Notes: generated from the letters alone by a model not told the origin. 64,000 bases of DNA from Minisyncoccota bacterium (GCA_016782605.1 JADHYE010000001.1:11128-75127); one strand, 5' to 3'. Counted from the stretch's first letter, positions 34,778-52,177 are shown. A program made the numbers and translations.

Positions 34778-34845
34778 GTTTTTGAGTCTAAAAAACGGCC
34801 TAACGGCCACAAGTTAAACTTAGCCGAAAACAAACTAGATGTCAA

Positions 34846-34930
34846 CCCCGCACCACTTTGCAGAAGAAATCTTCTTTTTAATATTTTGAAACAACTAATG
34901 AGATTTAAGTTGCATCAAAGTGGTGCGGGG
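34846..34930. mobile_element. family C-like hairpin element, copy C3
   Basis: 85 bp with perfect 15-bp arms ccccgcaccactttg / caaagtggtgcgggg. Flanked by tcaa at 34842-34845 and 34931-34934. Confidence 0.65.
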
Positions 34931-34939
34931 TCAAGGTTT

Positions 34940-36871
34940 CTAAATGTCTAAATTCTTAACGCCTTTGGCATGCGTCTGGATGAATTTCTTTCGGGGCAGC
35001 ACTTCATCTCCCATCAAGATATCGAAAATTCTGTCAGCTTCCTTGACATCTTCAATATCTACCCTTAATAAAGTCCTTTTTTCAGGATTCATGGTGGTTT
35101 CCCAAAGCTGATCCGGATTCATTTCTCCCAAACCCTTGTATCTTTGTATCGAAACATTCAAGATTTTCTCTTTCTTCAATTTCATTAAAACCTTGTCTTT
35201 TTCCTCTTCGGTATATGCATATTCTATCTTTTTGCCTGACTGTAAACGGTAAAGAGGAGGCTGAGCAATATATATGAAGCCTTTTTCAATCAGCAGCTTG
35301 AAATAGCGGTAAAAAAGAGTTAAAAGAAGAGTTCTTATATGGGAACCGTCAACATCAGCATCAGTCATTATAATAATGCGGTGGTATCTGGCCTTTTCAA
35401 TTTTAAAATCATCAGCCACTGCCGTACCCAAAGCAATGATCAATGATTTTATCTCTTTGGAAGAAAGCATCTTGTCCAGACGGGCGCGCTCAACATTCAA
35501 TATCTTTCCCCTTAAAGGCAGAATAGCCTGGAATCTTCTGTCCCTAGCCTGGCGAGAACTGCCGCCAGCTGACTCACCCTCAACTATGTAAAGTTCTGAG
35601 TCTTCGGGATTTCGAGAACTGCAGTCAGCCAATTTGCCCGGCAAAGCCAATCCCTCTAATGCTCCCTTGCGCAAAACAGTCTCACGCGCCACCCTAGCTG
35701 CTTTCCTGGCTTTTGAAGAAAGAATACATTTTTCAATAATCGCCCGGGCATCCTGCGGATTCCTTTCCAAAAAATCAGTCAGGGTTTCCGAAACAACTGC
35801 TTCCACTGCTGTTTTGGCCTCAGGATTACCTAACTTTGCTTTGGTCTGTCCTTCAAATTGCGGCTCTTTGATTTTTACGGAAACCACGCCGGTAAATCCC
35901 TCTCTGACGTCTTCACCCGACAAATTCTCATCGCTTTCTTTAAGAATGCCGTTCTTTTTGGCGTAATCGTTAAAAGTCCTGGTTAAAGCGGTTCTAAAGC
36001 CGGTCAAGTGATTTCCCCCCTCTCCGGTAAAAATGTTATTGGCAAAACTTTCTTCAAAACATTCATATTCTTCAGTATATTGGAAAGCTGCCTCAACCAG
36101 AATTCCTTCTTTTTCCCCGATACCGTAATAGATATTGGGATGGCGCTTAACCACGTCTCTGGTCAGATATTTGACGTATGAAGACAGTCCGCCCTCAAAA
36201 TAAAAAGCGTAGAACTTTTCCGGTTTTTCCCTTTGGTCAATGGCAGTGATTCTTATCTTTTTTGTCAGGTAAGCCTGCTGCCTGAGATGTTTCAGAATCT
36301 TATTAAAATCGAATTTGATTTCGCTGAATATCTCAGGATCCGGTTCAAAGTAAACCGTGGTGCCTGTCTGCCTGCATTTGCCGTCTTTTTTAACGGCTGT
36401 TTTAGGCTTTCCTTTGGCATATTCCTGGCAATACCTAATGTTATCTCGGCAGACTTCAACCCTCATCCATTTTGAAAGCGCGCAGACCACGGAAACTCCC
36501 ACGCCGTGCAAACCGCCAGCCACCTGGTAAGCTTTGCCTCCGAATTTAGCTCCGGCATGCAATGTTGTCATTACGGTTTCCAAAGCTGATTTTTTAGTTT
36601 GCCAGTGCCTTTCAACCGGAATTCCCCTGCCATCGTCAGTTGTCTTCACTTTGTTGCCTGGCGAAAGAATAACTTCAATGTTTTTTGCATGCCCGGCCAT
36701 TGCCTCATCCAAACTGTTATCAATGCATTCCCAAATCAAATGATGAAGTCCCTCTGGACCGGTTGAACCGATATACATGCCGGGCCTTTTCCTGACAGGA
36801 TCAAGGCCTTCCAAAACATAAATGTCTTTGGCAGTATAATCTTTTTCAGTTTTTTTAGGTTTTTGTAGCAT
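34940..36871 (-). CDS. gyrB: DNA gyrase subunit B
   Basis: GHKL ATPase and TOPRIM (EGESAGGS) domains. The ORF-track start (36898) runs into repeat A3. ATG at 36871 gives MLQKPKKTEKDYTAKDIYVLEGL.... Confidence 0.95.
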   Translation of the reverse strand: MLQKPKKTEKDYTAKDIYVLEGLDPVRKRPGMYIGSTGPEGLHHLIWECIDNSLDEAMAGHAKNIEVILSPGNKVKTTDDGRGIPVERHWQTKKSALETVMTTLHAGAKFGGKAYQVAGGLHGVGVSVVCALSKWMRVEVCRDNIRYCQEYAKGKPKTAVKKDGKCRQTGTTVYFEPDPEIFSEIKFDFNKILKHLRQQAYLTKKIRITAIDQREKPEKFYAFYFEGGLSSYVKYLTRDVVKRHPNIYYGIGEKEGILVEAAFQYTEEYECFEESFANNIFTGEGGNHLTGFRTALTRTFNDYAKKNGILKESDENLSGEDVREGFTGVVSVKIKEPQFEGQTKAKLGNPEAKTAVEAVVSETLTDFLERNPQDARAIIEKCILSSKARKAARVARETVLRKGALEGLALPGKLADCSSRNPEDSELYIVEGESAGGSSRQARDRRFQAILPLRGKILNVERARLDKMLSSKEIKSLIIALGTAVADDFKIEKARYHRIIIMTDADVDGSHIRTLLLTLFYRYFKLLIEKGFIYIAQPPLYRLQSGKKIEYAYTEEEKDKVLMKLKKEKILNVSIQRYKGLGEMNPDQLWETTMNPEKRTLLRVDIEDVKEADRIFDILMGDEVLPRKKFIQTHAKGVKNLDI

Positions 36872-36872
36872 A

Positions 36873-37019
36873 CCCCGTATATCAACTTCCAGAACCAAAC
36901 GCCGTTAGGTGCGTTTTAGCCTGTAAGCGGTTATTTGATAATAATTTCATATTTACAACCATTTGAGTTATGCCCGGCGTTTGTTTAGAACGCACCTTAC
37001 TGGAAGTTGTATTACGGGG
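36873..37019 (-). mobile_element. family A element, copy A3 (family A arms, unrelated 147-bp body)
   Basis: Arms are ccccgtatatcaacttccag / ctggaagttgtattacgggg. The interior is unrelated to the other 7 copies. Flanks are cata (36869-36872) and catt (37020-37023). Confidence 0.7.
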
Positions 37020-37031
37020 CATTTTTTAAAA

Positions 37032-51090: not shown

Positions 51091-51129
51091 AAAAAAAATA
51101 GCGGGTAGCCATTACAATTGACTACCCGC
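51091..51129 (-). terminator. strong intrinsic terminator after the 51135-51893 gene
   Basis: Minus strand reads GCGGGTAG-tcaattgtaatgg-CTACCCGC followed by TATTTTTTTT. Confidence 0.8.
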
Positions 51130-51134
51130 ACTGC

Positions 51135-51893
51135 TCACAGAGCAGATAACTTCTCCTCAACTCCACTGATGTGGAATTTAGCACTCAGCCCAGTCTCCTT
51201 CTGAGACCTCTCATATAACTTTATGGCCGTTCTGTACTCCGTCTTTGCTCTTCGTGTCTCTCCGATTTCCCTAAGGGCATCGGCCTTGTTCTGTTTGGCA
51301 TGCCCCGCTGTTCGGAGATCTCCCTTTGCCAAAGCAGTCTTATGCACCTTTTCGCACACTTGAACACTCTCAGCGAACCTTCCCTCACGACGAAGGGTAA
51401 TGGCCTTGGTATTCCAAACCGATGGCTCTTCGGAGAATGATGCAACAGCCTTATTGATAACTGACCAAGTCTCTGGCTTTTTATCTAAAAGCCAAAGTGC
51501 CAAGGGCAGCCCATTCAAACAGGAAATTTTCCTGCTTTTGTTTCTGGTATTAAGAGCTTCCCGAAACGAAAGCTCTGCTAGTTTAAGGTTGCCCTTCCTG
51601 GTTGCGACCGGGCCTTTGATTGAGATATAATAGTAATCCCATCCCAATATCCGGTTAGCCTCGGCAATCTCTTCTTTGCCGGTTAAACTTACTTTGTTCT
51701 TCTTGATCAAGGCAACTGACTCATCATATTTACCATCTGCATACAATTTCTTAGCCAGTTTCAAGATCTTTTGGGCCGGCATCGCTTTGGCAATTTCCTG
51801 CTCTTTTTTAAAGAACAGATAAACCATTGCATTGCAACCGGTAACAAAGCCCAATAGCAAGATAAATCCTGCTGAAAGAAAAAACTCTGCCAT
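51135..51893 (-). CDS. membrane-anchored TPR-like repeat protein, GC-richer than its surroundings
   Basis: 252 aa with an N-terminal TM helix and helical repeats. Preceded by AAAGGAGGTG (51908-51899), 5 nt before the ATG. Confidence 0.45.
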   Translation of the reverse strand: MAEFFLSAGFILLLGFVTGCNAMVYLFFKKEQEIAKAMPAQKILKLAKKLYADGKYDESVALIKKNKVSLTGKEEIAEANRILGWDYYYISIKGPVATRKGNLKLAELSFREALNTRNKSRKISCLNGLPLALWLLDKKPETWSVINKAVASFSEEPSVWNTKAITLRREGRFAESVQVCEKVHKTALAKGDLRTAGHAKQNKADALREIGETRRAKTEYRTAIKLYERSQKETGLSAKFHISGVEEKLSAL

Positions 51894-52066
51894 CTCGGCA
51901 CCTCCTTTCTTTATTTCTTATCTTTCGTTAATATATTAATCAAATCCTTACCTTGCAGGATATAATATGAATTCAACCTCCATCTCTCTTCTCTGCTCCT
52001 CACCATATATATCAACCCATATTGGACATAAAATGAACCACCGCTCCCCTCCTTCTACAATCACAT

Positions 52067-52095
52067 ATATTACCACGCTCTTTCCAAAATGTCAA
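52067..52095 (-). promoter_or_regulatory. consensus sigma70 promoter TTGACA-N17-TAATAT
   Basis: -35 at 52095-52090 and -10 at 52072-52067 on the minus strand. Would give a leader of about 170 nt to the 51893 ATG. TTGA of the -35 is also the flanking repeat of element C2. Confidence 0.6.
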
Positions 52096-52165
52096 CCCCA
52101 TTAGAAGTCCGCCTTGCCGGAGGCATGGCGACAGCCACCAAGGGGGCAGCTTACTTCTAACGGAG
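52096..52165. mobile_element. family C hairpin element, copy C2
   Basis: 70 bp. Arms are ccccattagaagt / acttctaacggag with a GC-rich interior. Flanked by tcaa at 52092-52095 and 52166-52169. Confidence 0.6.
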
Positions 52166-52177
52166 TCAAGATTGAGG

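Follow-up and report, generated by a model that had tools for sequence, protein, structure and literature searches.

The 64,000-nucleotide stretch of DNA analyzed here, hereafter the window, comes from a Minisyncoccota bacterium (GCA_016782605.1, JADHYE010000001.1:11128-75127). It has a G+C content of 38.7% and is densely filled by housekeeping genes, mostly on the minus strand, which include gyrB, secE-nusG-rplK, pheST, gatCAB, proS, two mreB genes, frr, and ribosomal protein genes; judged by its genes, the genome is of the Patescibacteria type (candidate phyla radiation). A metagenome contig in ENA (ERZ24794679 NODE_753) is 99.96% identical to the window. Two small foldback elements, C2 and C3, lie between genes of the window, each flanked on both sides by the tetramer TTGA when read in the minus-strand sense, and it is the placement of these elements and of their relatives that we describe.

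C3 (34846-34930, without a strand of its own) is 85 nt long and is bounded by perfect 15-nt terminal inverted repeats, CCCCGCACCACTTTG and CAAAGTGGTGCGGGG. It is located between secE and the gyrB stop codon (34940-34942, minus strand), 5 nt past that stop, and is identical across three independent assemblies. Its target duplication reads TCAA in the plus sense, TTGA in the minus sense, and occupies 34842-34845 on the promoter side and 34931-34934 on the gyrB side (both scored on the minus strand), exactly as an earlier note on this DNA had placed it. Removal of the element together with one repeat gave the reconstructed empty site GAAACCTTGACATCTAGTTTG (longer form, AACCTTGACATCTAG). Folded as DNA, the C3 hairpin has a 15-bp stem and a free energy of -21.4 kcal/mol (z = -7.1 versus shuffles). 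The promoter-side TTGA constitutes the first four bases of a retained TTGACA (34845-34840), which a 17-nt spacer separates from TAAGTT (34822-34817), together forming a weak candidate promoter of secE (34817-34845, minus strand). TAAGTT matches the -10 consensus at only 3/6 positions, though T1, A2, and T6 are kept, and the candidate was for this reason not called by the promoter scan. Between the candidate -10 and the secE ATG (34777-34775) lies a terminator-like hairpin, GTGGCCGTTAGGCCGT (34785-34810, minus strand; hairpin at 34810-34795, followed by TTTTTT); the ATG itself is found 68 nt 3' of the duplication, within the range seen at other TTGA-flanked sites. The TTGACA-N17-TAAGTT arrangement and the hairpin with its T-run are thus both present as first noted, and the reservation then attached to this promoter was justified by the weak -10 and by the hairpin that follows it. 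The site at C3 is of the same type as that at C2, but the activity of its candidate promoter is doubtful.

C2 (52096-52165, likewise without a strand) is a 70-nt foldback element whose 13-nt arms, CCCCATTAGAAGT and ACTTCTAACGGAG, differ by 2 mismatches. It is located in the divergent intergenic region between gene 51135-51893 (minus strand) and gene 52266-53570 (plus strand), is also present in loci L001 and L002, and gives, as DNA, a hairpin of -18.6 kcal/mol (z = -4.4 versus shuffles). The duplicated TCAA, again TTGA in the minus sense, lies at 52092-52095 on the promoter side and at 52166-52169 on the distal side (minus strand), as previously reported, and the reconstructed empty site reads CAATCTTGACATTTTGG (longer form, AATCTTGACATTTTGG). 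The promoter-side copy supplies the first four bases of the retained -35 of a sigma-70-type promoter, TTGACA-17-TAATAT with a TGn extension, which the promoter scan placed at 52067-52095 (minus strand, 10/12) and which faces gene 51135-51893 over a leader of about 174 nt. This gene encodes a TPR-like product of 252 aa, for which the Pfam TPR matches were faint. Since the duplication rebuilds the -35, the minus-strand promoter is the same in the empty-site reconstruction and in the filled site, except for its upstream context. Perfect 12/12 TTGACA-16-TATAAT sites at 25584 and at 13975 indicate that the organism uses the TTGACA/TATAAT consensus, and the predicted sigma-70-type promoter next to C2 is convincing.

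The reconstructed empty site at C2 contains two back-to-back promoters, the second being a plus-strand candidate, TTTCCA-17-TATAAT, for gene 52266-53570. In the filled site this candidate divergent promoter lies at 52155-52183, with its perfect -10 TATAAT at 52178-52183, and it is split by C2: TTTCCA has been moved 74 nt away, the arm sequence TTCTAA now stands at the -35, and the score is 9/12 instead of 10/12. The claim that C2 sits at the edge of a promoter without destroying it consequently holds for the minus-strand promoter but not for the plus-strand candidate.

Further copies were retrieved with the two arm sequences. Species-representative genomes were scanned for C2-type elements (CCCCRTTAGAAR-N85-115-YTTCTAAYGGRG; at least 120 stretches) and metagenomes for C3-type elements (CCCCGCACCAC-N35-65-GTGGTGCGGGG; 106 stretches), each scan covering one length class of elements only. 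Pooled, they amounted to at least 241 distinct copies, at least 154 of C2 type and 87 of C3 type, in different genomes and contexts; all counts of copies and flanks that follow are counts among the matches listed. The C2-type copies were found in many Patescibacteria lineages as well as in Thermodesulfobacteriota/Deltaproteobacteria, Omnitrophota, Planctomycetota, Nitrospirota, and Bdellovibrionales. The 4-base target duplication is real: identical 4-nt flanks bordered 148 of the 241 copies, whereas a control displaced by 4 nt gave 3 of 241. The spectrum of flanks was common to both arm families and was made up mainly of TAAA/TTTA (59 copies), TGAA/TTCA (40), TCAA/TTGA (21), TATG/CATA (8), and TATA (4). 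TTAA was never duplicated (0/148), yet it represents 9.7% of the TNNA tetramers in the same loci. Across loci L008 to L236, all six single changes at the two central bases of TTAA occurred as flanks, and no duplication of TACA/TGTA or of TAGA/TCTA was found in these loci either. From the spectrum and the lack of TTAA we derived the target rule T-V-A-A (complement, T-T-B-A), with G common before TAAA and TCAA, that is, C common after TTTA and TTGA.

Of the features by which miniature transposable elements with inverted repeats (MITEs) and other non-autonomous foldback elements are recognized, terminal inverted repeats, a duplication of fixed length, and many dispersed copies at unrelated sites were seen. 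The terminal 11 to 15 nt form inverted repeats that are conserved across phyla, and the ends of all families read CCCC...GGGG, or CCC/CCA in the two related families D1 and E described below, while the interiors of C2-type and of C3-type copies differ and are unrelated between copies. The earlier note had singled out three flanking tetramers, TATG, TGAA, and TTGA. These are genuine and rank among the dominant flanks of the 241 copies, so that the proposed preference was borne out by further copies; the set was incomplete, since four types occur in the window (the fourth being TTTA, around 16667-16731) and TAAA/TTTA is the commonest overall.

The 21 TTGA-flanked copies were examined for what follows the duplication. 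The next base was C in 17 of them, and the base after that was A in 12 and T in 6, with 12 sites reading TTGACA; position -1 was G or C in 17 of the 21, giving the consensus S-TTGAC-W. Both reconstructed empty sites of the window contain the octamer CTTGACAT, which had been proposed as the shared site of insertion, and the exact octamer recurs in loci L048 and L223 (4/21 in all, counting C2 and C3). The suggested preference is therefore visible in independent copies, with 17/21 at TTGAC and 12/21 at TTGACA, but the full octamer is not required. We then asked for a -10 box 16 to 18 nt past the hexamer, defined as a match of at least 5/6 with A2 and T6 present. Ten of the 21 copies passed, compared with none in the opposite orientation and 0 to 2% at control offsets. 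In the intergenic DNA of the same loci, such a box followed 6.1% of TTGA, 17.7% of TTGAC, 22.9% of TTGAC[AT], and 28.2% of TTGACA sites, and the probability of 10 or more of 21 at the TTGA baseline is 1.4e-7. Examples are TTGACA-18-TATAAT (L061), TTGACT-17-TATAAT (L080), and TTGAAA-17-TATAAT (L127), and TGn was frequent; among the ten, L125 is weak evidence, its "-10" falling inside a neighboring element. At most sites of this class, an open reading frame (ORF) on the same strand begins 33 to 107 nt past the duplication, and a small CTTG/CAAG class represents the same -35 hexamer struck one base earlier. In locus L125 (1156-1437), three C2-type elements are stacked head to tail with the same TTGA between each, which hints at repeated insertions, with the target being restored each time where the elements join.

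That the shared octamer and the promoter-like spacing might be mere chance in AT-rich intergenic DNA had to be weighed, given that the window holds just two copies, that the octamer match has a post hoc probability of about 0.01 (0.0097 for two random TTGA sites of the window sharing the -1 and +1 to +3 bases), and that promoter-like matches are common in AT-rich DNA, a local scan giving 2 where 1.3 were expected. The 19 independent TTGA-flanked copies elsewhere share the TTGAC(A) context and the -10 partners, at the probability given above, and two of them have the exact octamer, which makes such a coincidence very improbable. Because independent copies in other phyla agree with C2 and C3, the reading of the TTGA-flanked sites as -35 boxes is supported at the level of predicted promoters.

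On these grounds we propose that C2 and C3 probably represent two arm families within a single class of small, MITE-like foldback transposons that are non-autonomous and whose survivors are enriched where the duplication regenerates a signal. A trans-acting transposase would make 4-base staggered cuts at TVAA sites, and, judging from the 4-base T...A duplication and the CCC ends, the enzyme would likely be a DDE transposase of the piggyBac/IS1380 kind. Its intrinsic motif, (G)TCAA or TTGA(C), would coincide with the start of the -35 consensus, and purifying selection in compact genomes would keep mainly those insertions whose duplication, sometimes together with the terminal G's, rebuilds the interrupted signal. 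In this way TTGA would rebuild the -35 box, TATG (or G+TG from A|TGAA) the start codon, and TGA or TAA the upstream stop, and the prepilin motif G|FT would be restored as well. For the -35 class, the TTGA duplication equals the first four bases of the hexamer, so that the downstream copy leaves GGGG|TTGACA-N17-TAnnnT intact. We infer that a share of the placement is due to selection. The family is widespread and apparently undescribed; full-text literature searches on both arm sequences and on MITEs in Patescibacteria returned nothing relevant.

The ORF context of the remaining classes was read on reconstructed empty sites. TGAA copies lay on an A|TGAA start codon in 20 of 31 cases, 7 of these also being at an ATGA stop/start overlap, and TATG copies lay on start codons in 5 of 7 cases; the remark that the tetramers embed a start or stop triplet thus describes the literal placement of these two classes. 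TAAA copies were found on TAA stop codons at 7 of 33 sites. At ATGA overlaps, the upstream duplicate retains the stop, and the downstream gene receives a GTG start composed of the element's last G and the TG of the duplication. Seven TTTA-flanked copies, from both arm families, were located in type IV pilin-like genes (L099 7668, L120 6018, L148 541, L166 1354, L207 648/687, L208 9501, and L030 543), at the motif G|FTLIEL where the prepilin is cleaved; there, G|F-T is rebuilt from the GGG with which the element ends and from TTT-ACN. Of the seven, five are in frame and open, so that only the removed leader peptide is lengthened.

These placements bear on whether the bias is set at insertion, with the insertion machinery recognizing -35 and start-codon regions directly; it could be guided there by promoter-bound sigma factor or RNA polymerase, or by a DNA structure characteristic of such sites. 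Such targeting would account for the base-exact position, the duplication being the first four bases of the hexamer in 17 to 19 of 21 copies and the CTTG class being off by one, for the three tandem elements on one TTGA in L125, and for the -10 enrichment, which survives conditioning on TTGAC[AT]. It would also account for TTGAAA followed by a perfect TATAAT at L127 and L090, which a preference for TTGAC leaves unexplained. However, TAAA/TTTA insertions occur without promoter context (a -10 partner was present at only 5/33 and 1/26 TTTA sites), other copies are inserted in frame at prepilin sites and in dnaE, and no single DNA-bound machine marks all of these places. In addition, G before TAAA, or C after TTTA, recurs outside promoters, which argues for an intrinsic short motif. 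We consider direct targeting improbable.

Copies in the source genome extend these observations. C1 (43327-43455, minus strand), a 129-nt element with C2-type arms and TGAA flanks, lies in the ATGA overlap of the gatC stop and the gatA start, where its terminal G and the TG of the duplication form a new GTG start codon. Another contig of the genome, L003, has two TGAA copies with C2-type arms, one TTTA copy, and a mini hairpin in the PolX gene; the TGAA copies likewise lie at ATGA overlaps, and one of them (1912-2040) is a twin of C1 with 99% identity. C4 (16667-16731, plus strand) is a degenerate 65-nt element with C3-type arms and TTTA flanks; together with its duplication it lengthens the dnaE-like ORF 16657-19905 by 69 nt, equal to 23 codons inserted in frame behind codon 3, and the product reads MKF[TQHHF...KSGAV]FTHLHVHSHYSLLDG. 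An element of about 150 nt (57644-57792) between rpsM and the rpsK start is present in the window and in L001 and absent from L002 (1950-1952). Together with the C1 twin, this filled/empty polymorphism demonstrates recent mobility in the source genome.

The D1 family, with the related ends CCCYGTATATCAAC, has eight copies in the window, of 132 nt except for one 147-nt variant. Seven are flanked by TATG (13349-13480, 36873-37019, 41791-41922, 47114-47245, 47812-47943, 54741-54872, and 57054-57185) and one by TGAA (5021-5152), and every D1 copy falls precisely on the start codon of the gene that follows on the minus strand, these genes including trmD-like, gyrB, frr, rseP-like, and rpsD. All seven TATG-flanked copies are at start codons, and the ORF is open across the element: the ATG of the upstream duplicate opens an ORF of 41 to 46 codons (MPRNTTSRILRIK) that ends at a TGA lying 10 nt ahead of the true start; in the variant, which has another interior, the frame remains open too. 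The encoded peptide had no match in the genome and metagenome contigs searched and matched two ORFs only in the protein database. The E family (related ends CCAGGTAGTG, arms CCAGGTAGTGAAAATTC and GAATTTCTACTACCTGG, TATG flanks) has three copies in the window, at 52193-52264 (plus sense), 59907-59990, and 5791-5860, and one in L003 at 7664-7736. The first adjoins C2 and lies on the ATG of gene 52266-53570, and the others lie on the starts of genes 58604-59905 and 5154-5789 and of smpB. In both families, the downstream TATG holds the start codon of the next gene.

Several further repeats were seen in the same genome. Mini hairpins of 29 nt, made of two C2-type arms and a 3-nt loop (23815-23843 in the window and 2666-2694 in L003), stand in frame in a MiaB/RimO-like gene (NPIRNAISNGA) and in the PolX gene (HPVRKKSSNGA), neither being bordered by a clean duplication, and may be either minimal elements or remnants. 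Sequence related to the 57644-57792 element precedes two other ribosomal protein genes (3576-3727 and 33564-33868). Other short repeat families are built on the hairpin AAGAGATTTATCTCTT (15133-15262, 364-409, 3670-3693, 10883-10928, and 63832-63912), a 65-nt tandem duplication at 15133-15262 being part of them.

The orientation of the elements and the ORFs that run through them raise the alternative that these are regulatory cassettes kept for a useful hairpin, with position and orientation fixed by positive selection. They could insulate a promoter from read-through, end or stabilize the upstream transcript, or couple or uncouple translation of neighboring genes. In one subfamily defined by its interior, which is asymmetric, 12 out of 12 copies point the same way with respect to the gene downstream, and all 8 D1 copies of the window agree in orientation as well. 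This subfamily, from Patescibacteria (L011, L027, L029, L031, L049, L083, L003 19068, and relatives), contains in its interior a perfect, A/T-rich palindrome (CAGAAAAAATT...AATTTTTTCTG), behind which comes ACGGGGTATAAT, a TATAAT-like box. The ORFs of D1 and C1 are open from the old start to a stop 5 to 10 nt before the real start, as for termination-reinitiation coupling, and C3 amounts to a stable hairpin with a 15-bp stem just behind the gyrB stop. On the other hand, different copies of C2 type, like those of C3 type, have unrelated interiors, the TGAA copy L003 19068 has early stops in its through-frame, and the orientation bias would be equally explained by the removal of harmful orientations. 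Retention for such a function seems unlikely to us, as far as sequences allow a judgment.

A number of observations weigh against a class of transposable elements filtered by selection. Within TTGAC[AT] sites, about 7 of 13 have a -10 box against the 23% baseline, and both TTGAAA sites have near-perfect -10 boxes; a sequence preference alone is therefore insufficient, and active targeting and retention as regulatory cassettes stay live rivals. Ordinary intergenic TTGA sites should be tolerated too, so that survivorship may account for only part of the precision. Searches of the window, of 110 kb of the source genome, and of 1.6 Mb of related loci (8 to 20 kb around each copy) turned up neither a transposase nor an autonomous copy. 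When empty C2 and C3 sites were sought in other samples, both elements were present in every assembly recovered. A 12-nt arm conserved over distant phyla is unusual for MITEs. Finally, two C2-type arm pairs enclose complete tRNA genes and have no flank duplication (L044 5057-5166 and L113 1610-1723).

The enclosed tRNAs are Ala-CGC and Ser-CGA, and the sequence outside the arms resembles two halves of another tRNA-like gene. As to coding sequences, Pfam searches with 20 window proteins returned housekeeping domains only and no transposase domain, and the unannotated ORFs of the window, judged by eye, have the look of membrane or secreted proteins. In the 1.6 Mb of loci, arm pairs 0.4 to 6 kb apart with the look of an insertion sequence were absent and unpaired arms were almost absent, and all-against-all clustering of 654 ORFs from the loci gave housekeeping families only, with no recurrent transposase ORF.

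In a bolder reading, the elements would be no junk left by passive filtering but a phylum-spanning system that homes to -35 boxes, starts, stop/start overlaps, and signal-peptide cleavage sites in candidate-phyla-radiation bacteria. Its insertions would be silent or regulatory by design, the signal being regenerated by the terminal G's and the duplication, with arms providing stops in two frames before the gene and with some subfamilies bringing their own terminator-like palindrome and -10-like box, and the enzyme that moves them would be piggyBac-like, perhaps domesticated and encoded by a single-copy gene. We put this forward as a speculation that is unlikely to hold.

Surviving copies mark the punctuation of gene expression. 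If the pattern holds, tiny mobile elements are widespread in uncultivated bacteria, including those with the smallest known genomes, and persist there on -35 boxes, starts, and stop/start overlaps, which would make them a natural catalogue of the places where compact genomes tolerate 60 to 130 extra bases. They would further offer a sequence-only route to real promoters and true start codons in candidate-phyla-radiation genomes, for which transcript data are scarce. Annotation calls for caution, since the insertions move called starts, add spurious small ORFs, and extend proteins in frame. The pattern also raises a testable question, that of a transposase in bacteria whose 4-base T...A duplication is like that of piggyBac yet leaves out TTAA.

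We finally compared the elements with known systems. An origin from IS200/IS605-derived PATE or REP/REPIN elements was rejected, as the flanks vary and co-vary on both sides and the hairpin is formed by both termini together, whereas elements of that kind make no target duplication, insert 3' of one fixed tetra- or pentanucleotide, and have a subterminal hairpin at each end. Integron attC sites were rejected because the order of the arms is reversed (5' CCCCGTTAGAA ... TTCTAACGGGG 3' versus RYYYAAC...GTTRRRY) and there are no arrays; the copies stand singly among housekeeping genes and not at cassette boundaries. A known structured RNA family was dismissed for lack of an Rfam match, the whole window giving tRNAs only at the gathering score and, in E-value mode, only generic miRNA-hairpin noise far under threshold. 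Searches for plasmid or phage relatives gave chance matches only, and this origin was discarded as well.

The elements resemble the piggyBac superfamily, with its MITEs, and the related prokaryotic IS1380 family. In piggyBac and in ISEcp1, a TAGAA-like tract lies a few bases inside the end (CCCTAGAAAG in piggyBac and CCTAGATT in ISEcp1). Shared features are a 4-base duplication with T first and A last and terminal inverted repeats starting with CCC; the ends of IS1380 start with CC[CT]. piggyBac elements duplicate TTAA and have the end motifs CCCTT, CCCTC, or CCCAT, rare variant duplications include TAAA, TCAA, and TATG, and IS1380 has been used as a prokaryotic outgroup (PMC10813416). The elements described here differ in that TTAA is never duplicated, in their arm sequences, and in their hosts, mostly Patescibacteria and all of them uncultivated. 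Neither the window nor the searched loci yielded a transposase of piggyBac or IS1380 type with these ends. Given the deviation from the TTAA target and the lack of an enzyme tied to the ends, we speak of resemblance to piggyBac/IS1380 and not of membership.

Other known systems have no more than single traits in common with the elements. REP/REPIN sequences are short extragenic hairpins mobilized by RAYT, an IS200/IS605-like Y1 transposase, and are abundant without a flanking autonomous copy. No autonomous copy of the present elements was found in the loci searched either, and a single-copy domesticated mobilizer may fit them too, but REPINs have no target duplication and possess a conserved GTAG head, whereas here the flanks co-vary as 4-base duplications. 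The Rickettsia palindromic elements (RPE) are palindromic repeats that last in frame inside coding genes of reduced genomes, and parallels are provided here by C4 within dnaE, by the insertions into prepilin leaders, and by the hairpins of 29 nt that the MiaB-like and PolX genes contain. RPE differ in sequence from the elements found here, and, to our knowledge, they are confined to Rickettsia and have no known placement on start codons or -35 boxes and no defined 4-base duplication. MIRUs are intergenic operon repeats with short ORFs that overlap the start and stop codons of their neighbors and keep translational coupling, which recalls the through-ORFs of D1 and C1; in contrast, however, they are repeated directly in tandem and have neither terminal inverted repeats nor target duplications.

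The Correia elements (NEMIS) of Neisseria are foldback MITEs of about 100 to 150 bp that are found near genes, act on promoters and transcripts, and are often cotranscribed as hairpins. Like C2 and C3, they are small foldback units that interact with promoters. The duplication made by Correia elements, however, is TA, and promoter boxes arise with the help of their ends, whereas in the elements described here the four duplicated bases belong to a pre-existing -35 and the promoter is preserved; moreover, the arms are unrelated in sequence to those of Correia elements, and the host range is far broader.

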